A stretch of DNA of 64,000 nt, from assembly GCA_964399485.1 (NCBI GenBank), contig CAYNQS010000001.1, forward strand, positions 64,797-128,796, given 5' to 3'. This document shows, in pieces, positions 8,350 through 62,625 of this stretch. A program made the position numbers and the translations under genes. The notes below the pieces were generated by a model that saw only the letters and a list, made by a program, of their open reading frames with translations, made no database searches and was not told the origin of the DNA. The stretch's first letter is position 1; each line of letters starts with the position of its first letter. This DNA comes from an uncultured Candidatus Bathyarchaeia archaeon. Lineage in GTDB: Archaea; Thermoproteota; Bathyarchaeia; Bathyarchaeales; Bathyarchaeaceae.

Positions 8350-8887
8350 GACATGAACTTGAGTTAGCAGGCATCAAAGACCTGCAGTACTCGCAGGGCA
8401 CCATCTCCACCTCTTCTTTGATTACGCCTGCTGCGGCCCTGATTACCTGAAGCTCGATCGTGTCGCTAGTGGCGTCAGGGCGGTCATCCACTCCCACCAC
8501 TCCTTTGATGAGCCAGGAGACGTTTGCATCTATACCGTCTAAGGTTTCACGTCCACTGGCGGGAATGTTCACTTTTATTGGAAACGTCTTTTTGAATCCC
8601 GGCACAATATGCATTGGACCGCTTGCCTTCAAATCGTCTGAAAGAAGAGTGGCTGAATCCCAGTATACGTGCCGCACATTGCGTCGAAGGCGCTCATTGT
8701 ACACCCACCTTTCTCGTCTCCTCTTTTCGATGCATCGGAGCTCTGCTCTTATTTCGGTGGTGTCAAATTCTTCCTTGGAGGATACCGTGATTGTTCCGTT
8801 TATGCTTGAACCCAAAGCCATTGTTCTTTTTGGAATTTCAAGTTTGACTGCAGTTTTTGGTTTCCTGAACATTTTGAAGAAGCCCAA
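8321..8887 (-). CDS. SpoOM/arrestin-N-like protein with C-terminal zinc ribbon
   Basis: N-terminus MGFFKMF...GSSINGTITV resembles the SpoOM family. C-terminus is CEYC...CPIC. Confidence 0.55.
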   Translation of the reverse strand: MGFFKMFRKPKTAVKLEIPKRTMALGSSINGTITVSSKEEFDTTEIRAELRCIEKRRRERWVYNERLRRNVRHVYWDSATLLSDDLKASGPMHIVPGFKKTFPIKVNIPASGRETLDGIDANVSWLIKGVVGVDDRPDATSDTIELQVIRAAAGVIKEEVEMVPCEYCRSLMPANSSSCPICGAPRKS

Positions 8888-9029
8888 AGATTTCTATCTC
8901 CGGTTGGCTGTTATTTTGAAGATAAAGTATCTATTTATGATTTGCGTGTCTCTGCCTCTGAAAGGAAAACTTAGATTTCTGGGATAGAAGATAGAAAGTC
9001 TTTTTGAAACATGGTATGCGCGTTGGGTT

Positions 9030-9233
9030 TCATCTTTTTACAATGAAAGCGATTTTGACATCGGCATTGTATTCCACAATCTTGTTGTCTTCTACTTTGG
9101 CTGTGCATCGCTTAACGTGAACTCCTTTGATGTTCTTAACAGTCTTTGCTGCCTCAGTTACAGCGTTTTGAACAGCCTCGCTCCAGCCCTTCGGTGAACT
9201 ACCTATCAACTCGATAATTTTTACAACAGGCAT
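9030..9233 (-). CDS. Dodecin family flavin-binding protein
   Basis: MPVVKIIELIGSSPKGWSEAVQNAV...VEYNADVKIAF matches dodecin-family sequences. Start set at MPVVK. Confidence 0.8.
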   Translation of the reverse strand: MPVVKIIELIGSSPKGWSEAVQNAVTEAAKTVKNIKGVHVKRCTAKVEDNKIVEYNADVKIAFIVKR

Positions 9234-9379
9234 AACATTCACCTCCACTAACAAATGGTTTACGCGTCACTTCAGCTTTTCGACATAAACGCTCTCCAAA
9301 AAGCTGTTGTTAAGAAAATTAACGGACCCTTTTTATTGCAGCCTCAGTTAATCCCTTGAAAGAAAAAAGGGATTATCGG

Positions 9380-9901
9380 ATGACCATTATCATGGATGAC
9401 GCAGGAACTGGTGACCTCCTTTTTGGTGTTGTCATTGGCGCATTCCGCAATTCAACCCAAGAATTCAGATATAACGTTATTGACGTAAAATTTTTTAAAC
9501 CTAGAGCTTTTTCGCGAAAAGCATACCTGAAACAATGCTCAAAGATTGTTTCTAAGCTACTTGCTGGCATGAAACCAAAGCCAGAGGAAGAAATTCACAT
9601 TTGCAGAGGCTACATCTTTGATGAGGCTGTGGAGAAACTAAAACGGAAATATGGAGAAGATCGAATTCGCCGAGTTAAAGTGGTAGGAGAAACGCAAGAC
9701 CTTACAGAAATTGCCTACCTTGATGAAGTAAGGAATTTAGGTTACGAACCTCTTGAAGAAAGAGACAACAGAAGGGCAAAAAGCTTTTTTCACATGATGA
9801 ATTGGCTGAAGAAAAATCCAGACATGCTGAAATATGCAAAAACTGGTTGGCCACGATTGCAAAGGTACAAATTATTCAGGTCAAAAGAGAAGCGCAACTA
9901 A
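9380..9901 (+). CDS. Hypothetical protein
   Basis: ORF open from 9356 (TTG); ATG at 9380. Basic C-terminus; no family recognised. Confidence 0.5.
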   Translation: MTIIMDDAGTGDLLFGVVIGAFRNSTQEFRYNVIDVKFFKPRAFSRKAYLKQCSKIVSKLLAGMKPKPEEEIHICRGYIFDEAVEKLKRKYGEDRIRRVKVVGETQDLTEIAYLDEVRNLGYEPLEERDNRRAKSFFHMMNWLKKNPDMLKYAKTGWPRLQRYKLFRSKEKRN

Positions 9902-10009
9902 TTTTCTGTCTTCGGTAACATGGCACAGTTCGTTGCCGTTACGTCCGAATGCGGCTCTTCATGATAAATTGAAGGTAAACGTTTTTCTGAGGTTTTCACT
10001 GTTCACTTA

Positions 10010-10474
10010 GTGATAACTTTGAAAAACCAAGACTTAGAGTTTGCCAAGTTGAAGCTGATAAAGGAAGATCTGAGTTTAGTAATCGTGAAGAAAGGAAAAG
10101 TTATTTTTGAAACAAAGAAGCAGGGAATAAGCGGTTTTCTACAAGCCATCGAGAAGCTGGATAAAAATTTGGTTGCAGCCTCAGCAGCTGATAAGATTGT
10201 TGGGGTGGCTGCAGCCATGCTCTGTGTCTATGCTGGGGTGGCTTCTGTATTTGCCTTGACCGTCAGTGAGGAGGGAATCAGGGTGCTTGAAGACAACAAT
10301 ATTGCATGTCTGTTTGAAAAGAAAGTTTCGAATATCCTGAACCGCGACAAAAATGATGTGTGTCCCTTCGAAAAACTGGCTATTTCCTCTAGAAGCCCAG
10401 ATGAGGCTTATGTGAAGTTGAAGTCCTTAGCGAGTCAAATGATGAGAAAATCAACAGAAACTAATGATGACTAA
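10010..10474 (+). CDS. DUF1893 (TM1506-like) protein
   Basis: 154-aa ORF. GISGFL, ADKIVGVAAA and CPFEK segments resemble the DUF1893 family. Confidence 0.65.
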   Translation: MITLKNQDLEFAKLKLIKEDLSLVIVKKGKVIFETKKQGISGFLQAIEKLDKNLVAASAADKIVGVAAAMLCVYAGVASVFALTVSEEGIRVLEDNNIACLFEKKVSNILNRDKNDVCPFEKLAISSRSPDEAYVKLKSLASQMMRKSTETNDD

Positions 10475-45187: not shown

Positions 45188-45286
45188 GGGCCCGTAGCTC
45201 AGCAAGGCAGAGCGGCGGACTGGTCCTGCGGGACTAGGTTGAGGCTCTTAACCCGTAGGTCAGGGGTTCAATTCCCCTCGGGCCCG
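45188..45286 (+). tRNA. tRNA, most likely Lys(CUU), with a 25-nt interruption in the anticodon arm; no encoded CCA
   Basis: Acceptor GGGCCCG/CGGGCCC, D-arm GCTC-AGCAAGGCA-GAGC, T-arm AGGGG-TTCAATT-CCCCT. Removing 45219..45243 gives stem GCGGG/CCCGT with loop CTCTTAA. Confidence 0.7.
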
Positions 45287-54020: not shown

Positions 54021-54166
54021 AGTTTTGTATAATCTGCCTTAGAACCTGTGGATTTTCTCTGGTTCGGTGTTTCGTGTTTTTGCAGGAACTTTTATATAGG
54101 TGTTTGGATGGATTATCCATCCGAGTGGGTGAAAACAATGGAAAACAAGATAACCAGCAAACTGGG

Positions 54167-55135
54167 ATGGTGGAAATAACGTCAAGGAAAACAATCATCG
54201 CTATCATACTATTGATAATAGTTGGAGTCACGGCAGTTATTGCCGTTTCACAATTCTACAAACCTGAGGAAGCAACCCCCGGTACGGTAAGCATTATAGA
54301 CGACGTTGGAAGAAACGTTACGATAACCGATTTTCCTCCGCAGAGAATAGTGTCAACGGCTGCTAGTTGTACGGAAATACTTTTCGCGTTGGGACTGGGA
54401 GACAAAGTCGTTGGTGTGGACGAATATTCCGACTATCCTCCAGAGGTTCTAGAAAGGGTTGATGCGGGCACCTTAACAACTGTAGGATCCTTCGCTGAAA
54501 TTAACATAGAGTTGGTTGTCAGCTTAGAACCTGATTTGATTGTGGCAACAAGTGGAGTGCAGAGTGCAGTTGTAGAAAACTTGGAGGGACAAGGCCAAAC
54601 TGTCATTGTTTTATATCCCGAAAGGTTTGACGGAGTACTCACAGACATTTCTTTGGTTGGAGAAATCACGGGCCAAACAGATGAGGCGGAAGAAATTGTA
54701 ACAGATATGCAGGAAAGAGCCCAGGAAATCGCTGAAAAAGTAAAAGACTTACCTAAAATACCTGTCTACATTGAAATGTTCTTCAATGGAGGCTACTGGA
54801 CTTTCGGGTCAGACTCGTATGTTGACGAGTTGATCTCTATGGCTGGTGGAACAAACGTGTTTTCGGGAGTCGGAGGCGGACACATATCAACATCTTCAGA
54901 GGAGATACTTCAAGCGAATCCAGAGATTATAATAATCTCGAGGGGTGCCATGGCAGATTTTTGTGGGCTTACAGCGGAAGTAATTAGAGCACGGCCGGGT
55001 TGGAACGAGATTTCCGCGGTGAAAAATGATCAGATATACGAAGTCACGGAATCTATCATAGTTTTAGGAGTGCCCAGACTGATTGATGGCTTGGAAGCGA
55101 TTGCTGAAATAATTCATCCGGAACTGTTCAGCTGA
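54167..55135 (+). CDS. ABC importer substrate-binding protein (FhuD/BtuF class, siderophore/heme/cobalamin type)
   Basis: N-terminal TM/signal anchor. RIVSTAASCTEILFALGLGDKVVGV and DLIVATSG are typical of Peripla_BP_2 proteins. Confidence 0.85.
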   Translation: MVEITSRKTIIAIILLIIVGVTAVIAVSQFYKPEEATPGTVSIIDDVGRNVTITDFPPQRIVSTAASCTEILFALGLGDKVVGVDEYSDYPPEVLERVDAGTLTTVGSFAEINIELVVSLEPDLIVATSGVQSAVVENLEGQGQTVIVLYPERFDGVLTDISLVGEITGQTDEAEEIVTDMQERAQEIAEKVKDLPKIPVYIEMFFNGGYWTFGSDSYVDELISMAGGTNVFSGVGGGHISTSSEEILQANPEIIIISRGAMADFCGLTAEVIRARPGWNEISAVKNDQIYEVTESIIVLGVPRLIDGLEAIAEIIHPELFS

Positions 55136-55155
55136 TTGCAGAGGACTAAGCAGTA

Positions 55156-55908
55156 ATGACGAACATCTACAACATCACACATTACAGTAGCAGCAACTCC
55201 ATATACATCCTCTTTAAGGGATGCAACTTCCAATGCAAAGGTTGTTTTATAAAGGACACGAAGTGGGACTACCACCTTGCAGATGACGTTCGTGAACATT
55301 TTGAAGCAACCAAAGATATTGAACTGTTATCGTTGAGCGAATTTGAGACTATCGTTAAAGGGCTTAATGTAAAACAAGCTGTTTTGGGCGGAGAAGAGTG
55401 CACTGTCGATGAAGAGCTGCCAAACGTAGTCGATTTGCTCACCAGTCTCGGCATCAAAACTCTCGTAACGACCAACGGTCATCGTTTAAATGAAGAATTG
55501 ATAGAAGAATTGGAGGCGGCAGGGCTCTCGGCTACTCGCATGAGTATCAAGGCATATGAGGACAGTATTCATCGACTTTACACAGGACACACTAACAAGT
55601 CAGTTTTGAAGCATTTCAGGCTTCTCAGCGAAAGTCGAATCAGACCTATTGCAGAGAGCACGTTAATCCCAGGGTTGGTCGAACAAAATGAAATTGAGAG
55701 AATAGCTGAATTTATTGCCATCATAAATCCAGCGATACCGTATAGAGTCGACGGGTTTCTTCCTTCCTATAAGGCGACTTGGCGAGCCCCCTCTCCAGAG
55801 GAAGTGATTAACGCAGTACATGCAGCCCAAAAGTATTTGTGGTGCGTTCACTATCTCCACTGCGCGACAGTACAGCATGAAAATAAAGTCTCCAGTGTAT
55901 ATCCATGA
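55156..55908 (+). CDS. Small radical SAM protein embedded in the ABC operon
   Basis: CNFQCKGC (C-x3-C-x2-C) near the N-terminus, LGGEE glycine-rich motif; 250 aa. Subfamily not recognised. Confidence 0.8.
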   Translation: MTNIYNITHYSSSNSIYILFKGCNFQCKGCFIKDTKWDYHLADDVREHFEATKDIELLSLSEFETIVKGLNVKQAVLGGEECTVDEELPNVVDLLTSLGIKTLVTTNGHRLNEELIEELEAAGLSATRMSIKAYEDSIHRLYTGHTNKSVLKHFRLLSESRIRPIAESTLIPGLVEQNEIERIAEFIAIINPAIPYRVDGFLPSYKATWRAPSPEEVINAVHAAQKYLWCVHYLHCATVQHENKVSSVYP

Positions 55909-55950
55909 ATTAAGTAAGGTGACCCATTATCAGACGATAAAGGAGAGGCG

Positions 55951-57036
55951 ATGACTCCTATGAGTTCAAGTGAAGCTGAGAGTGCGTATTTCAAGCGGTT
56001 TGCTAGATGGAAATTTATCGTCCTCATTCTAATTCTGGCTCTAATACTTACAATGACATTTGCTATCACAGTTGGTCCAGTGCCAATTTCGCCTATTGAT
56101 GCCTATAAGATAGTTATCAATAAGATACCTTTCATAGGCGATTTGATCACAAGCGGGTCATCATCCATGGAGGAATCTGTCATAATGCTAGTAAGATTAC
56201 CCCGTGTGTTGGGTGCGGCACTTGTTGGAATTGCTCTTGCAGTAGCTGGCGTTGTCTTACAGGGGCTATTTAGGAATCCAATGGCCGATCCATACTTAAT
56301 AGGCATTTCTGCTGGAGCAAGCGTGGGCGCATCACTTGCCATAGCTTTTGGAATCGGTTTATCGTTTTTTGGAGTGCTATATTCAGTCCCTCTTATGGCA
56401 TTCATTTTTGCTATTGGCACGGTTTTCTTGGTTTACACTATTTCAAGGACAGGAAAAGAAGTGCCGATGTCAACACTGTTGCTCGTTGGAATAGCTGTCA
56501 ACAGTTTTCTAATGGCTATTACTGCAATCATCAGATTGATTGCCGGTGAAGCAGTACATGCCATAATGACTTGGATGTTTGGCAGCCTTAATTTAGTTGA
56601 CTGGAACTATGTAGAAATCGCCTTACCCTTCGTGGTGGTTGGTGTAGCCCTGATCTATGTTTTTGCCAGAGACCTAAACATAATGCTGCTTGGTGAAGAA
56701 CAAGCTCATCATCTTGGAGTGGATACCGAAAGGCTGAAAAAAATTTTGCTTACCTCTGCAACGTTAATGACAGCGGCAGCAGTTTCAATTAGTGGTATAA
56801 TTGGTTTTGTCGGATTGATTATTCCACATGTAGCAAGAATCTTAGTGGGTCCAGATCACCGAATTTTAATACCATCATCTGCATTAACGGGGGCAATAGT
56901 TCTAATTTTGTGTGACACAGCAGCACGCACCGTCGTTAGACCAATGCAGTTGCCAGTTGGCATAATTACCGCTCTCCTAGGCGCGCCCTTTTTCATATAC
57001 TTAGTACGTAGGAAAAAACGTTCAGTAATAGGGTAA
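55951..57036 (+). CDS. FecCD/BtuC family ABC permease
   Basis: Polytopic, with RLPRVLGAALVG, NPMADPYLIGISAGA and PVGIITALLGAPFF family motifs. Confidence 0.9.
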   Translation: MTPMSSSEAESAYFKRFARWKFIVLILILALILTMTFAITVGPVPISPIDAYKIVINKIPFIGDLITSGSSSMEESVIMLVRLPRVLGAALVGIALAVAGVVLQGLFRNPMADPYLIGISAGASVGASLAIAFGIGLSFFGVLYSVPLMAFIFAIGTVFLVYTISRTGKEVPMSTLLLVGIAVNSFLMAITAIIRLIAGEAVHAIMTWMFGSLNLVDWNYVEIALPFVVVGVALIYVFARDLNIMLLGEEQAHHLGVDTERLKKILLTSATLMTAAAVSISGIIGFVGLIIPHVARILVGPDHRILIPSSALTGAIVLILCDTAARTVVRPMQLPVGIITALLGAPFFIYLVRRKKRSVIG

Positions 57037-57046
57037 GGATGGAAAA

Positions 57047-58336
57047 TTGGTAAACTTGAGAATTAGCGGCATAGACTGCTACTATGGGTCAATTAAAGCA
57101 TTGGATAACATCAATTTTTCAGTTAGAGAAGGCGAATTTGTAGGCATTTTAGGCCCAAACGGATCAGGAAAAACAACTGCTCTCAGGGCAATTAGCAGAA
57201 CCTTGAAACCCAGAATGGGGACGATTTTCTTAGATGACAAAAACATTTACGACATGGAGAACAGGGAGGTAGCAAAAAACGTAGCTGTGGTGCCTCAAGA
57301 GAGCATATCAACCTTTGATTTCACAGTATTAGACATTGTGCTCATGGGACGGAACCCATACATAGACCGTTTCAGACAGGAAAGCAGAGAAGACCTAGCC
57401 ATAGCCAAGAGAGTTATGGAGTTAACAAACACATGGAGTTTAGCTGAAAGACCAGTTAACGAGTTAAGCGGCGGAGAAAAACAGCGCGTCATAATTGCGC
57501 GTGCCCTAACTCAAGAACCGAAAATTCTTTTGCTAGACGAACCGACAAGCCACTTGGACATAAGCAATCAACTAGAGATAATGGACCTCATCAAACGTTT
57601 ATGCGAAACTAAAAAGCTGCTGATAATCGCCGTTTTCCACGACTTCAACCTAGCTGCCCGATACTGCGACTCAATTATTCTTTTGAATGAGGGAAAAATC
57701 GTTGCTGTCGGAAAATCAGACGAGACTCTCACCAGCGAAAACGTCAGAAAAGTTTTCAGCGTTGACACCATCGTCAAAAAGCATCCTGTCACCGGCTTCC
57801 TTCACGTTATCCCCGTTTCAAGACCCCTAAACCAGAAACAAAAAACCCTTTCCATCCATCTGATTAGTGGATGCGGCACAGGTAGCCCCCTGATGAAGAT
57901 TTTGAAGGACGAAGGCTATTTCGTGACTGCTGGGGTTCTCAACCTGCTGGACACTGATCAAGAGACTGCTCAGCTGCTGAAGATTCCAACAACAAGTGAA
58001 GCCCCCTTCTCTCCCATAACCGAAGAAGCTTACACGGCAAACCTGAAGATGATAAACAAAGCCAACACTATAGTTATAACGCCGACCCAGTTTGGTGACG
58101 GCAACCTGCGTAACCTCGAAGCTGCAGAAACGGCTCTGAAAAAAGGAATACAGATCATCCTCCTAGAAAATGGGCCAATCGAAGAGAGGGACTTCACCAA
58201 CGGCAAAGCCACAAAATACTTGGCATCACTCAAAAACAACGGCGCCATAACCGTGAAGAGCAACAAGGAACTCCTACATTTTCTCGACAAACTAGAAAAG
58301 AAAAACAACAAAAATTCCCATAAGAAAAAGGGATGA
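57047..58336 (+). CDS. ABC ATPase (FecE/BtuD type) with about 170-aa C-terminal Rossmann-like extension
   Basis: GPNGSGKTT, LSGGEKQRV and LLLDEPTSHLD, followed by an extra domain beginning IHLISGCGTGSPLMKILKDEGYFVTAGVLNLLD. Confidence 0.9.
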   Translation: MVNLRISGIDCYYGSIKALDNINFSVREGEFVGILGPNGSGKTTALRAISRTLKPRMGTIFLDDKNIYDMENREVAKNVAVVPQESISTFDFTVLDIVLMGRNPYIDRFRQESREDLAIAKRVMELTNTWSLAERPVNELSGGEKQRVIIARALTQEPKILLLDEPTSHLDISNQLEIMDLIKRLCETKKLLIIAVFHDFNLAARYCDSIILLNEGKIVAVGKSDETLTSENVRKVFSVDTIVKKHPVTGFLHVIPVSRPLNQKQKTLSIHLISGCGTGSPLMKILKDEGYFVTAGVLNLLDTDQETAQLLKIPTTSEAPFSPITEEAYTANLKMINKANTIVITPTQFGDGNLRNLEAAETALKKGIQIILLENGPIEERDFTNGKATKYLASLKNNGAITVKSNKELLHFLDKLEKKNNKNSHKKKG

Positions 58337-58419
58337 GGCAACAGAAACTGTTACACAACCCTCTTTCTGGAAAAATTAAATACATTTTTATCTCCTCGTT
58401 AAACTCTTGAATACTGCTC

Positions 58420-59508
58420 ATGGTGAAGATTTTGAAGTCCAATGGACCCCTATTCATTCTGCCTTGGAGATGCACACAAGCCTGCACCAGCAGTTGTCTA
58501 CACTGCGGTTTCGCATCAAACCCCCCCGCCTCTGACGCCCTCGGAACCAAAGAAGTCATGCGTATCGTGGACGAAATCTACGATTTTGGGGCAACTTATC
58601 TAGGATTAAGCGGCGGAGAACCCCTTCTGCGAAAAGACCTACCAGAAATAATCGGCTACGCCAAAAACGTCGGCTTGAACGTGAGTCTCATAACCAACGG
58701 CTACCATGTTGACGGCAAAATCTTCGACAACCTAGTTAGACACGATGTTCGCGTCTCACTGAGTGTTGACGGAACAGAAGAAATCAACGATGCTATACGA
58801 GGAAAGGGCGCATACGAAAAAGCTGTTTCAGCCATGGAAAAAACTTCTAAAGCGGGGCTGCTGGACTGTCTTGTGGCAACCCTTGCCAATGTTGACGCAA
58901 CCCGCAATAACCTCACCTCCGAAGATATGGAGCACGTCATCCAACTGGCTGAAAGGTATGGCGCCCGGTGGGTGGTGATTCACGGCTTCATTCCCTTCAA
59001 CCGAACAAAAGAGCACCTCGCCAAGTCTCCATCCCCACAGCAGTACGAGAAGATTTGGAACCAAGTCTATGATTTGCGGCTGAAGTACTACGGAAAACCT
59101 GAAGTCAACGTTTATTGCCCCTTCTTCGCCCGCATCGCCAAGGAACGGGGCATGCCGGATCTCCATCACTGGTTCAACAACATTTTCCTTGGCAAGTGCT
59201 CCATCGCCGGCAAATACATGAGCGTAATCGAAAACGGAGACGTTATCCCCTGCAGCTTCAACGACCATATCCGACTTGGAAACGTTCAGGATAAGCCGCT
59301 GAAGCAAATCTGGGATGAACATCAAACCTCAGCACTTACTCGCAAGCTCAGGGATCGGAGTAACCTGAAAGGCAAATGTGGCGTCTGCGAGTACCGCGAA
59401 ATCTGTGGCGGATGTCGAACCAGAGCAGAGATGTACACTGGAGATATTTTCGCCTCTGACCCAGCATGCGGATACGTGCCTAAACTATTGCGTGAAAAAA
59501 CTGAATAA
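58420..59508 (+). CDS. Radical SAM/SPASM protein, NirJ/AhbC/AhbD-like (paralog 1)
   Basis: CTSSCLHC cluster motif, SGGEPLL, C-terminal GKCGVCEYREICGGCRTRAE SPASM motif. Confidence 0.85.
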   Translation: MVKILKSNGPLFILPWRCTQACTSSCLHCGFASNPPASDALGTKEVMRIVDEIYDFGATYLGLSGGEPLLRKDLPEIIGYAKNVGLNVSLITNGYHVDGKIFDNLVRHDVRVSLSVDGTEEINDAIRGKGAYEKAVSAMEKTSKAGLLDCLVATLANVDATRNNLTSEDMEHVIQLAERYGARWVVIHGFIPFNRTKEHLAKSPSPQQYEKIWNQVYDLRLKYYGKPEVNVYCPFFARIAKERGMPDLHHWFNNIFLGKCSIAGKYMSVIENGDVIPCSFNDHIRLGNVQDKPLKQIWDEHQTSALTRKLRDRSNLKGKCGVCEYREICGGCRTRAEMYTGDIFASDPACGYVPKLLREKTE

Positions 59509-59569
59509 CCATTCATCTAAATGCATCTGTTTCTTTCCTTATACTAAGTAAACATTGACTGAAAACACA

Positions 59570-59577
59570 TTATAATT
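59570..59577 (+). promoter_or_regulatory. Candidate TATA box for the left M2 element
   Basis: TTATAATT 30 nt upstream of the conserved block, preceded by the A-rich AAAACAC. Confidence 0.3.
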
Positions 59578-59599
59578 CACGTTCATACCTAATTTTTTA

Positions 59600-59661
59600 G
59601 TCAAGAAAATTTGACTAACGTATGGTGTGGTTGGTCAAGAATCCTTTACAAAAATCCTTTT
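59600..59661 (+). ncRNA. M2 element, left copy (candidate leader RNA, small RNA or operator)
   Basis: 62 nt, 57/62 identical to the reverse complement of 62532..62593. Contains GTCAA-N6-TTGAC and TTGACTAA-N12-TTGGTCAA. Confidence 0.35.
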
Positions 59662-59702
59662 ATTACCTACTCTCCACGTAATCAATTGTTGGAGCTCCTA
59701 AC

Positions 59703-59837
59703 ATGAAAAAGACCGCATTAAGATTCGTTATGTTGCTACATTCTACTAGAAAAATCAATCTCACAAAAGCGGCACCTAAGACCATAGTTGCTCCTGCGCT
59801 CACGCAAAAAAGCAACGACTGGATAGCACGCGGCTAA
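59703..59837 (+). CDS. Possible 44-aa ORF upstream of radical SAM paralog 2
   Basis: ATG after GGAGCTCCTAAC. Translation is MKKTALRFVMLLHSTRKINLTKAAPKTIVAPALTQKSNDWIARG. No other support. Confidence 0.2.
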   Translation: MKKTALRFVMLLHSTRKINLTKAAPKTIVAPALTQKSNDWIARG

Positions 59838-59909
59838 CACAGTGGGACTCCAACACTCTAACCCCTACTAACATAATAAGGGAGTAATGTAAAGGAGTGC
59901 GAACAAACC

Positions 59910-60959
59910 GTGAATAGAAGACCTCTCCTGTATATGATGACTTGGAGATGTACGAGAGCTTGTAACTATAACTGTTTGCACTGCAGTTTCGGTTCCAGCC
60001 CTGCCGCCATTAACGAGATCGACACCAAAGGTGGAATGCGCATAGTTGATGAACTTTATGAGATGGGGGCAAAGTGGTTTGGGCTGAGCGGCGGAGAACC
60101 TCTTCTGCGGAAGGACATTTTTGAGATCATTAAGCATGCGAAGAGTCTGGGCATGAATGTGAGCCTCATAACCAACGGCTACTATGTTAAGGGGGATATT
60201 CTCGACAACCTAATCCGAAACGAGGTTATGACCGCGGTAAGTCTTGATGGAAGAGAGGAGTCGCACGATTTTATACGCGGCAAAGGCGCCTATGCAACAG
60301 CTCTTCTGGCTATGGAGAATTTGTCTGAGGGCGGAATTTTTGATTGCGTCGTAAGTACACTGAATAAGCGTAACTGCTCGGAGGTGGATCATGTAGCCCA
60401 GGTGGCGCATGAGTATGATGCTACTCGTGTGGTTTATCACAATTACATTCCTGTTGGCAGAGCTGAGGAGCATCTGGAGTTGGCTCCCACCCCACAGCAG
60501 TATGAGACGGTTTTGAATAGAATTTACGATTTGATGCAGGAGTATAGAGGAAAACTCGGCGTCAACGTTTATTGTCCCTTCTTCGCTCGCATCGCCAAGG
60601 AAAGGGGTATGCCCGACTTTGATTACTGGTTCAACAATGTGTTTCTTGGGCAGTGCTTTATTGGCGGCAGATATATTGGTCTGCTGGAAAATGGTGACAT
60701 GCGACCCTGTGGCTTTAATGAGGGTTACCGTATGGGCAACATTAAGAACAAGTTGATGAAGGAGATTTGGGCTGACATGCAGACATCAGAGTTCACTCGT
60801 AAGCTCAGGGATCGGAGTAACCTGAAGGGCAAATGTGGCGTCTGCGAATACCGCGAAATCTGTGGCGGATGCCGAACCAGAGCAGAAATCTACACTGGCG
60901 ACCTCTTCCAGTCTGACCCAGCATGCGGATACGTGCCTAAACTATTGCGCGAAAAATAG
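59910..60959 (+). CDS. Radical SAM/SPASM protein, NirJ/AhbC/AhbD-like (paralog 2)
   Basis: CNYNCLHC, SGGEPLL and the same C-terminal SPASM motif as paralog 1. GTG start after AAGGAGTG. Confidence 0.85.
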   Translation: MNRRPLLYMMTWRCTRACNYNCLHCSFGSSPAAINEIDTKGGMRIVDELYEMGAKWFGLSGGEPLLRKDIFEIIKHAKSLGMNVSLITNGYYVKGDILDNLIRNEVMTAVSLDGREESHDFIRGKGAYATALLAMENLSEGGIFDCVVSTLNKRNCSEVDHVAQVAHEYDATRVVYHNYIPVGRAEEHLELAPTPQQYETVLNRIYDLMQEYRGKLGVNVYCPFFARIAKERGMPDFDYWFNNVFLGQCFIGGRYIGLLENGDMRPCGFNEGYRMGNIKNKLMKEIWADMQTSEFTRKLRDRSNLKGKCGVCEYREICGGCRTRAEIYTGDLFQSDPACGYVPKLLREK

Positions 60960-60972
60960 GGCGACAACAAAG

Positions 60973-62268
60973 TTATTTGTTTTCTGCGAATTCCCACGCG
61001 ATGTTGGCTTTCCAGAGGTCTCCAAGTTCGGTTATTTTGATTTCTTTTTCGTTTATTTCGATTAGTCCCTTTTCTTTCAGTCTTTTCAGTTGTTCAGGGT
61101 ACACTTCTTCGGGGAGCTTTCCGAACCTTTCCTTGAATTCCAGTTTATCTACGGGTAGGCGCAGGTAGAGTTTTGTCATCACCTTTCTCATCATGTCTTC
61201 GTCTGTAGATTTCGAGAGTTTTGCGATCGGAAATCTTCCTTCCTGAACAGTTGCAACGTAGTCGTTCGCCAGCTCGATGTTGGAGTAAGAAAATCTCTGA
61301 AGATATCCCATGAAGCATCCTGCTCCTGTCGTTAGGATGCCTGCCCAAGGCCATCCGTTTAGGCAGTTCTCTTTGGCGTGCCATTCTACTCTGGAGTAGC
61401 GGTCGTGACCAATCGGCTTGTAGCCCGCCTCCGTGAACAGTTCGTATGCTGCAACATACATTTTCTTCTCCAGTTCCGGGTCTGCTTGGGGCGGCACCTT
61501 CCCAGCTTGCATCTGTTTATACAAGACCGTTTCAGGGTAAACTTCAAGGCAGTATGCGTCAACTTCCGCATCTAATTCGATTGCCGTCTTCACAGTGTCG
61601 ATCCAGCTTTCCAGTGTTTGTCCTGGAATGCTGTACATTATGTCTATGCAGACGCAGAGTCCAAGTTTTCTGGCGAGTCTGACTTCCTCTTTTACGTGTT
61701 CTGCGCTGTCCGGCAGATTCAGCATCCTTCGGAGTTTGTCGTCGAAGGTTTGGGCTCCCATGTCCACTTGGAAGACGCCGTATTCTGCGGCTGCAACTAG
61801 CTTCTCTTTGGAGAAGCTTCTGGATGAGCCCGTGATTTTGATGAAGTAGTCGTCTACTGTGTTGAAGTTTTGTTCGCAGAATTTTATCAGATCAAACATC
61901 TGGTCTTTGGTCATGAGGCTTGGTGTTCCTCCGCCCAGAACTATTTCGTCGAATTCGCTGGTTTTGACATACTTTGTTTCAGCGTACATCATCAGCTCTT
62001 TCTTTAAAGCCTTGAGATATGGTTCCATCTTGGCGCTGGAGTAAGGGTTGTTTGGGTAGTAGCAGAAGGTGCATCTGGAGTCGCAGAAGGATATCCACGG
62101 CTGGAGCTCCATCACCTTGTTTGACGTGTTCTCGGTTGCCAGGAACCCCATGAATTCCTTGTATGTTTCAGGTGCGATGTCCGGATAATCTCGGTATGTG
62201 TAAGGCGGCCAGCTCTCTCTTGAACTGTATGTGTTCTCTTTCTCTGCTTCGGGGATAGCTGATTTCAT
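60973..62268 (-). CDS. HemN-family radical SAM protein (HemN/HemW/ChuW-like)
   Basis: CDSRCTFC cluster motif, LGGGTPS, C-terminal HemN_C-like winged-helix tail; 431 aa. Confidence 0.85.
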   Translation of the reverse strand: MKSAIPEAEKENTYSSRESWPPYTYRDYPDIAPETYKEFMGFLATENTSNKVMELQPWISFCDSRCTFCYYPNNPYSSAKMEPYLKALKKELMMYAETKYVKTSEFDEIVLGGGTPSLMTKDQMFDLIKFCEQNFNTVDDYFIKITGSSRSFSKEKLVAAAEYGVFQVDMGAQTFDDKLRRMLNLPDSAEHVKEEVRLARKLGLCVCIDIMYSIPGQTLESWIDTVKTAIELDAEVDAYCLEVYPETVLYKQMQAGKVPPQADPELEKKMYVAAYELFTEAGYKPIGHDRYSRVEWHAKENCLNGWPWAGILTTGAGCFMGYLQRFSYSNIELANDYVATVQEGRFPIAKLSKSTDEDMMRKVMTKLYLRLPVDKLEFKERFGKLPEEVYPEQLKRLKEKGLIEINEKEIKITELGDLWKANIAWEFAENK

Positions 62269-62424
62269 TTCGAATTTCCCCAGATTGCCGTTTTATAGAA
62301 TATTTGGGAATAATATAAACTTGCGTTTTTCATTGTTATTGCCAGAATGTTCGGGTTATTTGGCGTTTGCAAGCTTATATTCGGTGCCAGAAGAGAAAAA
62401 CTGTTTTTGTTGTTGCCTGTTTTT

Positions 62425-62483
62425 CCAGAAAAAATATTGTTTTCAACAATCAACTGTTATTAGTCTCCTAATATGAATGATTT
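62425..62483 (+). repeat. M1 repeat, copy G
   Basis: CCAGAAAAAATATTGTTTTCAACAATCAACTGTTATTAGTCTCCTAATATGAATGATTT. Confidence 0.8.
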
Positions 62484-62531
62484 ATGATGCCGTACGACCA
62501 ATTTCCGTGCCTATATCGCCAGTGAGAGGCT

Positions 62532-62593
62532 AAAAGGGTTTTTGTAAAGGATTCTTGACCAACCACACCATAGTTTAGTCAAGTTTTTTTGAC
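62532..62593 (-). ncRNA. M2 element, right copy (inverted relative to the left copy)
   Basis: The reverse complement reads GTCAAAAAAACTTGACTAAACTATGGTGTGGTTGGTCAAGAATCCTTTACAAAAACCCTTTT. Confidence 0.35.
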
Positions 62594-62617
62594 AAACCAT
62601 TCAATCGGTTCATAATT

Positions 62618-62625
62618 GTTTATAA
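62618..62625 (-). promoter_or_regulatory. Candidate TATA box for the right M2 element
   Basis: TTATAAAC on the minus strand, 32 nt upstream of the conserved block, preceded by AAAACCAC. Confidence 0.3.

Follow-up and report, generated by a model that had tools for sequence, protein, structure and literature searches.

Genes and repeats at the locus

The window, a stretch of 64,000 nt from an uncultured Candidatus Bathyarchaeia archaeon, carries two convergent radical SAM genes with an inverted copy of a short block on either side. The left gene (59910..60959, + strand) encodes a SPASM protein, paralog 2, with Pfam Radical_SAM and SPASM matches; its best NCBIfam matches are AhbD/NirJ2-like, all under the curated cut-offs. 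The right gene (60973..62268, - strand) is HemN-like (ChuW/HutW-like) by its domain matches. An exact-protein look-up of the HemN-like protein returned no record and a scan of a genome collection with a window-specific 20-mer gave only a chance match, in an Actinomycetota MAG, so the species lies outside the representatives of that collection.

A repeat finder reports the blocks as inverted-repeat arms of 66 nt at 59597-59662 (+) and 62531-62596 (-) that are 91% complementary. The initial annotation, made from the sequence of the window, counted 57 matches in 62 positions, and a recount over 59600-59661 gives the same figure. It was also right that the similarity has abrupt edges, as the flanks of the two copies fail to align, and that the blocks lie about 250-265 nt upstream of the genes (the GTG at 59910 is 248 nt away and the ATG at 62268 is 263 nt away). 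Both copies contain the GTCAA-N6-TTGAC palindrome that it described, which occurs within the window only at 59600 and 62578 (0.06 expected). A 27-nt core is the same in both copies and is found nowhere else in the window (0 expected).

Architecture of the module family

Further copies, which the initial annotation had proposed to search for, are abundant: part of the block, used to scan metagenomes, retrieves the proximal box described below on >120 contigs. The scan pattern fixed this box, so that its conservation among the hits holds by construction. The distal palindrome box, which was not part of the pattern, nevertheless lies upstream of it in 96 of 104 non-identical family copies; many copies are paralogous or orthologous, so that the counts do not represent independent events. 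The common architecture consists of the distal palindrome GTCAA-N6-TTGAC, a spacer, the proximal near-palindrome GTCAAGAAAyCTTTAC, and a tail formed by an A-run followed by CCTTTTA. The tail is conserved across the family, both in the nhmmer family profile and in an alignment of 54 copies. In the same alignment the GTCAA and TTGAC half-sites are invariant or nearly so, the 6-bp centre and the spacer vary, and the box centre is sometimes reversed (L032, L085). Profile searches detect no extra weak copies in the window or in the related loci L001-L008.

The spacing between the boxes, measured start to start, falls into two classes, 32-36 bp (n=54) and 43-46 bp (n=42), with none at 37-42 bp, and both classes are found inside one downstream protein family. 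Third boxes, where present, lie another 25-67 bp upstream, mostly 32-44 bp. A mirrored A-run/T-run tail is found at the distal side in 14 of 96 copies. Six of these 14 (L033, L052, L080, L121, L125 and L128) have a divergent secreted gene at the canonical distance on that side, as against 0 of the 82 copies without a mirrored tail. The two blocks of the window are copies of this module, probably a DNA control element that comprises a putative operator pair and a core promoter, and are not a private duplication.

Genes downstream of the module

The module precedes well over a hundred genes for secreted cell-surface proteins in uncultured Bathyarchaeia. An ORF with a signal peptide follows 78 of the 104 copies (75%), and in 70 of these 78 it starts 43-60 nt after the TTTAC of the proximal box, with a mode at 58. 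Over all copies, an ORF start is found at 40-65 nt in 86%, compared to 30% of random positions. The downstream proteins include 33 NosD/beta-helix and 17 Kelch proteins out of 76, and 44 of the 76 end in IPEFPSW, a transmembrane segment and a basic tail, that is, a PEF-CTERM anchor.

The association was also examined from gene to element, by looking up five homologues of one surface protein (L129-L133). The module is complete in L129 and L133; L130 carries a single perfect box, with an A-run and CCCTATATT. In L131 two boxes directly follow the queried gene, which is part of an operon-like array and therefore lacks its own promoter. L132, the most distant of the five homologues, has no box. No further palindrome of this kind is present in L129, L130 or L133. 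Judged from these gene associations, the module is best read as marking a cell-surface regulon of Bathyarchaeia that would comprise secreted, mostly PEF-CTERM-anchored proteins, among them beta-helix and Kelch proteins, together with a unit formed by a small ORF and a SPASM radical SAM gene.

Bathyarchaeia rank with the most abundant archaea of anoxic sediments and are essentially uncultured, and to our knowledge nothing is known about their gene regulation. Literature searches for a promoter or regulon motif in Bathyarchaeia returned nothing relevant. The module provides a sharply defined and searchable cis-regulatory signature in its palindrome, helical spacing and fixed start-codon distance, and it can help with start-site calls and the annotation of 5′ UTRs in MAGs. 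It could also be used as a DNA probe for its regulator and as a natural promoter for genetic tools.

Copy 1 and the small ORF/SPASM unit

Copy 1 (59597..59665, + strand) contains all parts of the module, matches the family profile with E = 1.4e-19 and aligns with 53 other copies. Its distal box, the palindrome GTCAAGAAAATTTGAC (59600..59615), is of the type found in the 96 copies mentioned above and is a putative high-affinity operator. The proximal box GTCAAGAATCCTTTAC (59634..59649) starts 34 bp further on and so falls into the shorter spacing class of the family. It is followed at 59650..59665 by a candidate core promoter composed of the A-run AAAAAT (BRE-like) and CCTTTTATTA (TATA-like). 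This assignment draws on the conservation of the tail throughout the family, its mirroring next to divergent genes and its replacement by CCCTATATT in L130, and it would place the start of transcription near 59686-59690.

A 44-aa ORF (59703..59837, + strand) has its ATG at the canonical start position of the family, 58 nt downstream of the first T of TTTAC (59645). A small ORF between the module and the SPASM gene recurs in the 9 related loci compared and is intact in 7 of them. The leader of the unit (59687..59855, + strand) has an MFE z of -2.69. RNAalifold on 8 lineages predicts a closing helix around the small ORF, formed by the ends at 59687-59699 and 59844-59855; covariation is weak, and the model is suggestive only. 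Copy 1 is best explained as a working member of the family in canonical position before the 44-aa ORF and SPASM paralog 2, the distal gene of the unit.

Copy 2 and the loss of its target gene

According to the initial annotation, each copy points to a radical SAM gene. This holds, and is conserved, for copy 1 only; copy 2 is a putative promoter left as an orphan. Copy 2 (62529..62596, - strand) is recognised by the inverted-repeat arm, the palindrome and the family profile. It has a distal box at 62578-62593, a proximal box at 62544-62559 and an A-run with CCCTTTTAG at 62530-62543, all on the - strand, and no start codon lies at the canonical distance from it. Its orthologues in L040 and L072 drive genes for secreted proteins of the Kelch and beta-helix types. 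In L040 a Kelch gene separates the right-hand copy from the HemN-like gene. The segment at 62269..62483 (- strand) aligns at 91.5% to L040 8683-8897 and consists of the last ~23 nt of the Kelch gene with its downstream hairpin/T-tract region, followed by the upstream region of the HemN-like gene, and about 1160 bp of L040 are absent in between. By this alignment, copy 2 was orphaned in the window lineage by a deletion of ~1.16 kb that removed its Kelch target gene. The hairpins and T-tract that had been described as an attenuator-like layout on the right side belong to the 3′ end of the deleted gene and to the region after it, and were not built for the HemN-like gene. Copy 2 now faces the old terminator region of the Kelch gene and a HemN-like gene that is promoted separately.

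The HemN-like gene is not a conserved target of the module. It is present in L001, L006 and L008, where the module is absent, and the module is missing from relatives at 85-87% HemN-like protein identity. The gene has a candidate proximal promoter of its own, AAAAACGCAAGTTTATATTATTCCC (62306..62330, - strand), in which the TATA starts 50 nt before the ATG. This promoter sequence is conserved in L001, which lacks the module. An iron operator of the DtxR type was considered, as FeoAB, SufBD and DtxR adjoin the HemN-like homologue in L002 and L003, and was rejected because the module is tied to surface-protein genes and not to the HemN-like gene.

Probably a DNA element and not a structured RNA

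Three roles had been suggested for the block from the two copies of the window, namely a riboswitch-like leader, a duplicated small RNA and a palindromic operator for a dimeric regulator. The first two would have a 62-nt RNA, with alternative helices or as a small RNA gene, transcribed from the TTATAA upstream. Such boxes, preceded by AAAAC, do exist at 59570-59575 and 62620-62625, 30 and 32 nt before the two blocks, a TTTT run closes the block, and the alternative hairpins can be drawn. An element upstream of biosynthetic genes with alternative hairpins is also what riboswitches and attenuator leaders look like. However, the TTATAA box is not a family-conserved promoter and is missing even from the L040 orthologue of copy 1. 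No family-conserved promoter is found upstream of the block, and the conserved BRE/TATA-like sequence is instead the 3′ tail of the block itself, which precedes the inferred start of transcription. Genes begin a fixed 58 nt past the block without a long leader. The 69-nt RNAs fold no better than shuffles (z = -1.06 and -1.51 in sense, -1.65 and -0.12 in antisense). The compensatory changes that would support the alternative helices are not seen in the 54-sequence alignment, where the core pairs are invariant and the outer pairs broken (36/53 unpaired at one position). Covariation in helix 1 is no higher than in shuffles, and no compensatory change occurs in helix 2. Some copies have the box flipped, and in others (L022) it is altered non-compensatorily. 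Spacing quantised by ~10 bp is a property of the DNA helix, and Rfam gives no match at the blocks, either at the gathering threshold or at E <= 10. A role as RNA is therefore very unlikely.

The mutually exclusive hairpins can be drawn because one palindrome is present twice in the block. A palindromic operator that is repeated in tandem will always look like a pair of mutually exclusive RNA helices, which calls for caution with similar elements. In principle, transcription might still enter the block from an upstream promoter that is not conserved, such as TTATAA. Inspection reveals no C/D boxes in the block, and ideas of a tRNA half, a C/D box RNA or an att site find no support from inspection, ARAGORN or Rfam. 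A scan for sigma-70 promoters and intrinsic terminators is uninformative for an archaeon.

A putative operator pair joined to a putative core promoter

The third suggested role, an operator for a dimeric regulator, fits the family well. The module has the properties expected of an operator: dyad-symmetric sites with conserved half-sites and a tolerant centre, several sites phased by integral helical turns, and a fixed position and orientation relative to the gene start. It is likely that the block represents a pair of transcription-factor operators fused to a BRE/TATA core promoter, with a geometry like that of Lrp/Ptr2 systems. A dimeric transcription factor would bind the perfect distal palindrome and the proximal near-palindrome, two putative sites that lie 34 or 44-45 bp apart on one face of the helix. 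The proximal site would abut the core promoter, made up of the A-run as BRE and CCTTTTA as a weak TATA. Transcription would begin ~30 nt past the T-run. The start codon, which lies 58 nt downstream of the proximal box, would then be preceded by a 5′ UTR of ~15 nt. The factor may be an activator that recruits TBP to the weak TATA, as do archaeal activators of the Lrp/Ptr2 type; alternatively, it may be a repressor occluding BRE and TATA. The TATA assignment is ambiguous. Besides the conserved A-run with CCTTTTA, and CCCTATATT in its place in L130, the candidates include TTTACAAA inside the proximal box, which would imply repression by occlusion.

In archaeal promoters the BRE is an A-rich element that directly adjoins the TATA box (PMC7289017). 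The TATA box is expected about 26 nt upstream of the transcription start. The sites bound by Lrp-type regulators in archaea are palindromic around an AT-rich centre and cluster in helical phase, and for the activators one site lies a few bp upstream of the BRE (PMC2995911). The module resembles the promoters controlled by Lrp/FFRP-type regulators, such as Ptr2 of M. jannaschii and Ss-LrpB and LysM of Sulfolobus, in having semi-palindromes with an AT-rich centre and two or three sites in helical register, one just upstream of the BRE (a putative BRE in the module) and the others further upstream (PMC2995911). These regulators activate weak TATA promoters or have dual roles (PMC2995911), and the likeness of the module to them is one of geometry. 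The 16-bp site with its GTCAA/TTGAC half-sites corresponds to no described consensus, the spacing is ~3.2 or 4.2 turns compared to the 2-3 reported, and the targets are cell-surface proteins in contrast to the metabolic genes of the Lrp/FFRP systems. Genes of the Lrp/AsnC family adjoin three surface-gene loci, which is a lead only. The AsnC-type neighbour in L130 has no homologue in about 1 Mb of loci searched by tblastn.

Recombination and inversion

The inverted copies bracket 2.9 kb in the window, and the convergent gene pair sits in differing contexts in relatives. This might suggest that the blocks mark where a private segmental inversion or duplication ends, a case that the initial annotation had raised against its own reading, or that they terminate a composite transposon carrying the SPASM and HemN-like genes. 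Such an origin is hardly credible, as the family occupies >120 loci, nearly all of them single copies before unrelated genes, and in L040 the Kelch gene driven by the right-hand copy intervenes before the HemN-like gene. The marks of a MITE or composite transposon are missing too: neither a transposase nor a target-site duplication is found, and position and orientation are tied to gene starts. A broader form of mobility, in which a promoter-carrying repeat is spread by recombination or gene conversion and owes its identity to recent descent and not to a dedicated regulator, has more in its favour. The module is present in the window and in L005 and absent from the relatives at 85-87% identity in which this gene pair is also found. 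The two copies of a genome have derived bases in common, indicating concerted evolution. L009 and L121 share one 2.9-kb flank, which adjoins different surface genes in the two and is combined with the module in opposite orientations, and between L125 and L128 the module is inverted at one and the same place. Very similar promoters before non-homologous genes, within and between genomes, have been described as reused or putative mobile promoters (Nijveen, Matus-Garcia and van Passel 2012; PMC3575422). In contrast to those, the module is archaeal, only ~70 bp are in common and these have an internal operator architecture; its spacers have diverged, and the similarity is therefore maintained and not merely recent. 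Spacers and box centres have diverged freely while half-sites, helical spacing and start-codon distance are held, which argues for selection on function, not recency. Terminal structures are absent, and the orientation to genes is non-random, as the positions of ORF starts show. Recent descent as the whole explanation is thus unlikely, and the spread of a cassette is compatible with promoter/operator function and does not exclude it. The similarity may be due in part to recent spread or gene conversion instead of a binding constraint, because the module is absent from those close relatives.

A related idea is that the module, lying between short inverted repeats, is an invertible switch that redirects surface-gene expression (phase variation), with the two copies of the window as substrates. 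The best case comes from L125 and L080 compared with L128, where 389 nt on each flank are 99% identical and the 74 bp between AAAAGGGTTTTTGT and ACAAAAACCCTTTT are 100% identical but reversed. The reversed segment has a beta-helix surface gene on either side, the two genes being divergent and each ~37-45 nt from the module. Copies 1 and 2 of the window show gene conversion, and archaeal invertons have barely been explored (10.1101/2023.03.11.532203). Bacterial invertons such as fimS and the surface-polysaccharide switches of Bacteroides likewise have a short segment, flanked by inverted repeats and adjacent to surface-protein genes, that occurs in both orientations. Unlike these, the module offers one clear case in about 100 loci, between strains from different samples that are 5% diverged overall, and the 9.8-kb locus of L125 contains no recombinase gene or domain. 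The putative core promoters lie inside the inverted repeats and would stay put, so that only the two boxes and the spacer flip. Most family members lack the second repeat, the mirrored end being present in only 14 of 96 copies, and the 2.9-kb segment of the window has the same orientation in L005 and L040. An invertible promoter switch is accordingly quite improbable.

The operator pair joined to a core promoter, our preferred reading, could also serve Bathyarchaeia as the control unit of a system that varies the cell surface by recombination, an unlikely extension. The operator pair would flip between the two fixed core promoters of divergent surface genes, as in L125 versus L128, and recombination between loci would exchange or delete surface genes, as in L009 versus L121 and in the Kelch deletion and gene conversion of the window. 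Such a system would be an archaeal counterpart of bacterial invertons and shufflons that acts at the level of the operator. Both orientations within one population, together with a site-specific recombinase, were not found in the material compared, which came from different samples and strains and included a search of the 9.8 kb of L125. An inverted-repeat-bounded segment in both orientations at one locus occurs in L125/L080 versus L128 only, and this inversion in place, if programmed, would be a rare case of archaeal phase variation.

A probable operator and core promoter module

The element found twice in the window appears to be an operator joined to a core promoter, a new family of a known kind. 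In full-text literature searches no account of a comparable Bathyarchaeia motif came up, and the module would be the first defined cis-regulatory signature, with its regulon, in an abundant uncultured archaeal class, which gives it moderate interest. It consists of a distal box (GTCAA-N6-TTGAC), a proximal box (GTCAAGAAAyCTTTAC) and a tail made of an A-run and CCTTTTA. Copy 1 lies at 59597-59665 on the forward strand and copy 2 at 62529-62596 on the reverse strand. A repeat finder recovers them as inverted arms of 66 nt (59597-59662 and 62531-62596), 91% complementary and separated by 2868 nt. The initial annotation had described the pair accurately: our own count over 59600-59661 gives the same 57 matches in 62 positions, the similarity does start abruptly, the compared regions upstream of the two blocks failing to align, and TTATAA is present 30 and 32 nt before the block starts. 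A 27-nt core, TATGGTGTGGTTGGTCAAGAATCCTTT, is identical in the two copies, with no third match in the 64-kb window at up to three mismatches (0 expected). GTCAA-N6-TTGAC itself occurs twice in the window, both times in the blocks (0.06 expected).

The related locus L005 (93% protein identity) is syntenic and carries both copies. Within each genome the two copies have derived bases in common (GGTG...AATCC in the window, GATT...AAAyC in L005) and their ends retain position-specific bases, so the inverted copies have undergone gene conversion. The convergent HemN-like/SPASM gene pair is found without the block in four other loci (L001, L006, L007 and L008; 85-87% identity).

Architecture of the family

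Scanning a genome collection with a window-specific 20-mer gave one chance match only. A metagenome scan with TGGTCAAGAANNCTTTACAAAA, a pattern derived from the columns invariant in four known copies and requiring only the proximal box, matched at least 120 contigs; removal of identical copies left 104 among the matches listed. A distal box with at most one mismatch lies upstream of the proximal box in 96 of these 104 listed copies. Measured from the start of one box to the start of the other, the distance falls into two strictly separate classes, 32-36 bp (n=54, mode 34) and 43-46 bp (n=42, with modes at 44 and 45), and none of the 96 listed two-box copies has a spacing of 37-42 bp. A third box stands 25-67 bp further upstream, mostly 32-44 bp, at seven of the listed loci. 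[quoted passage not shown] The half-sites show little or no variation; the 6-bp centre and the spacer between the boxes are variable, and in two compared loci (L032 and L085) the centre of the distal box is reversed.

Genes downstream of the module

An ORF with a signal peptide follows 78 of the 104 listed copies, and in 70 of these 78 its start codon is 43-60 nt past the first T of TTTAC (mode 58, n=25). By a looser criterion, an ORF starts at 40-65 nt in 86% of the listed copies; for randomly chosen positions in these loci the figure is 30%. Among the 76 downstream proteins of the listed matches, 33 are of the NosD/beta-helix type and 17 are Kelch proteins; 44 terminate in IPEFPSW, then a hydrophobic stretch, then a basic tail. 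Such an ending is the sorting signal known as PEF-CTERM, and the HMM recognises it in 7. In a second downstream class the module precedes a small ORF and then a SPASM radical SAM gene (copy 1 and loci L005, L040, L047, L053, L083, L109, L110 and L032), and in L070 and L073 a radical SAM gene is directly downstream.

The association was also approached from the gene. Homologues of one downstream beta-helix protein come from sources named Candidatus Bathyarchaeota or MCG-1 SG8-32-1, and one of these homologues is 100% identical to the protein 3′ of the L094 copy. Five homologues were fetched without reference to the motif. On the 776-kb contig L129 two boxes are 33 bp apart, the ATG is about 58 nt past TTTAC, and the proximal box, ACTTTTAC, falls outside the TGGTCAAGAANNCTTTACAAAA scan pattern. 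In L133 the two boxes are spaced 44 bp and the ATG comes at 59 nt. L130 carries a single perfect box, then AAAAAA and CCCTATATT; its start codon, a TTG, is 53 nt past the box. Elsewhere in the L129, L130 and L133 loci the palindrome is absent. In L131 (MCG-1 SG8-32-1) two flipped boxes, 34 bp apart and accompanied by AAAAACGCTTTTAT, are located 3′ of the queried gene, which stands within an operon-like array; no boxes were found at L132, the locus of a 38% homologue.

Lrp/AsnC-family genes lie 0.1-2 kb from the beta-helix surface-protein genes at three of the five independently fetched loci (L130 11402-11872, L132 1804-2043 and L133 3080-3328). One encodes a full HTH_AsnC domain and two the RAM domain only. 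These genes offer a lead to a candidate regulator of the module, but their family is common in archaea and no homologue of the L130 protein was found at the other loci.

Operator, promoter or RNA element

Throughout the family the block has a conserved 3′ tail, AAAAAy CCTTTTA, and L130 has a textbook TATA (CCCTATATT) at the place of the tail. A mirrored tail, AAAAGnnTTTTT, stands 5′ of the distal box in 14 of the 96 listed two-box copies. A gene for a secreted protein, reading divergently, lies 49-58 nt from the distal box in six of these 14 and in none of the other 82 listed copies. The archaeal BRE is A-rich and immediately 5′ of a TATA box of 7-8 bp (PMC7289017). On these grounds the A-run is a putative BRE and CCTTTTAy a putative weak TATA, in which case the proximal box would end exactly at the BRE. 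The same arrangement is described for the Lrp-type activators Ptr2, LysM and Ss-LrpB, where a dimer site lies a few bp upstream of the BRE with more sites upstream, the sites are palindromes with AT-rich centres, and helical periodicity governs their alignment (PMC2995911). By its layout the module may thus act like an Lrp/Ptr2-type controlled archaeal promoter. If the TATA centre is about 26 nt upstream of the start site, copy 1 would be transcribed from near 59686-59690. Its 5′ UTR would then be 15 nt long, with a GGAG 8 nt ahead of the ATG (59703). Alternatively, TTTACAAA, which overlaps the proximal box, could be the TATA, and the factor would then be a repressor.

Of the roles first proposed for the blocks, the palindromic operator gains support from the module evidence, the boxes being predicted protein-binding sites; the riboswitch-like leader and the small RNA do not. 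On neither strand is the fold of the 69-nt block RNAs better than that of shuffled sequences (z from -0.1 to -1.65). The only Rfam hits in the window are two tRNAs, and none comes up near the blocks when the threshold is relaxed to E = 10. The mutually exclusive helices were examined in a 54-sequence alignment of the 34-bp spacing class. There the five core GTCAA/TTGAC pairs never vary and are therefore uninformative on RNA pairing; the three outer pairs are not maintained, one being unpaired in 36 of 53 sequences, and covariation does not exceed that of shuffles. The alternative helix, TTGACTAA with TTGGTCAA, has zero compensatory changes in the alignment; it is a simple consequence of the complementarity between the proximal box's left half and the distal box's right half. 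The non-compensated GTCAAT...CTTAAC of L022 and the flipped boxes also argue against RNA helices. As for the TTATAA promoter proposed 30 nt upstream, the family does not show it, and it is missing from the L040 orthologue of copy 1.

Copy 1, a regular member

By these family rules copy 1 is a regular member. A 44-aa ORF (59703-59837) begins 58 nt after T59645, the family mode, and the order of module, small ORF and SPASM gene recurs in nine related loci compared, the ORF being intact in seven. A conserved leader of about 170 nt (59687-59855) lies between copy 1 and SPASM paralog 2. Its ends pair, UGUUGGAGCUCC with GGGACUCCAACA, enclosing the ORF (MFE z = -2.69); across eight lineages 93.9% of cells are paired and four pairs are altered on both sides. 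The peptide has synonymous changes in its APAL core, forms only three clusters among 1.84 billion representatives, and has lost its start codon in L047 and L032. The region may be the gene of a SPASM precursor peptide, a structured leader, or both.

Copy 2, an orphan after a deletion

No start codon stands at the canonical distance from copy 2. In L040 the orthologous purM-side copy precedes a gene for a 381-aa Kelch PEF-CTERM protein (8874-10019), followed by the HemN-like gene; in L072 it precedes a beta-helix protein gene. The window aligns with L040 in two blocks (compare 62269-62531 with L040 8683-10056). Between them about 1160 bp of L040 are skipped, a stretch that begins 37 nt upstream of the Kelch ATG and stops about 24 nt short of the end of the gene. 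The Kelch gene was thus deleted in the lineage of the window and L005, leaving copy 2 as a putative orphan promoter. Where the first post-module nucleotides stood, the window has 48 nt of unrelated filler (62484-62531). It follows from the two-block alignment that 62269-62483 comprises the old Kelch 3′ end and terminator region together with the HemN-like gene's own promoter. The latter has a BRE/TATA-like sequence, AAAAACGCAAsTTTATATTATTC, with a TATA beginning about 50 nt before the ATG, and is kept in L001, a locus without the block. That copy 2 is aimed at a radical SAM gene is an accident of the deletion; the double hairpin and T-tract noted on this side are present but represent the old Kelch 3′ end and terminator region, not an attenuator. 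Within this region, 62426-62475 matches, reversed, the sequence upstream of the L013 module (50 nt, 90%). The match probably reflects a 3′ end or terminator that PEF-CTERM genes have in common, and it may correspond to the motif initially called M1.

In-place inversion and possible gene exchange

Loci L125 and L080 are collinear with L128: the 389 nt flanking the module to the left and to the right are 99% identical, and the 74 bp between AAAAGGGTTTTTGT and ACAAAAACCCTTTT are 100% identical but reversed (L125 3028-3101, L080 10160-10233; L128 2838-2911). The segment is bounded by 14-bp inverted repeats and has a beta-helix gene on either side; the two genes are divergent, and their starts are 37-45 nt away from the module. 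The flipped part would be the box pair and spacer, the inverted repeats themselves being the putative core promoters. In L121 (3830-7014) and L009 (9209-12300) a common 2.9-kb housekeeping flank (90%) adjoins the module, whose orientation differs between the two loci. The surface genes on the far side are not the same either, one locus having a Kelch gene and the other a gene for an unrelated secreted protein, which suggests gene exchange at the module. Programmed inversion is a minority hypothesis for these loci, with the first comparison a clear case and the second suggestive; against it, the 9.8-kb L125 locus encodes no recombinase. At one locus the module is inverton-like, archaeal invertons being reported as barely studied (10.1101/2023.03.11.532203), and there is a small chance that it belongs to a surface-variation mechanism. 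Its evolution partly resembles that of the 'reused promoters' of Nijveen et al. (PMC3575422).

Genomic neighbourhood

SPASM paralog 2 (59910-60959, forward strand), 3′ of copy 1, converges with the HemN-like gene (60973-62268, reverse strand), and purM lies beyond copy 2. Upstream of copy 1 are a haem/corrinoid-type ABC transporter (substrate-binding protein, FecCD permease and ATPase) and, alongside it, a small radical SAM gene and SPASM paralog 1. The top NCBIfam model for the HemN-like gene is ChuW/HutW, an anaerobic haem-degrading methyltransferase, matched below the cut-off (191 bits against 400); homologues of the protein come from sources named Bathyarchaeota or Bathyarchaeia. The stretch 54074-62268 groups the HemN-like gene with two AhbD/NirJ-like SPASM enzymes, the small radical SAM protein and the haem/B12-type transporter, and in L002/L003 (2892-11231) the neighbours of the HemN-like homologue are SufBD, FeoAB and a DtxR-type repressor. 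Such a cluster may serve a Bathyarchaeon in the anaerobic acquisition of haem or iron. Elsewhere in the window, the 99-nt tRNA at 45188-45286 (Rfam, 52 bits), which ARAGORN does not report, presumably contains an intron.
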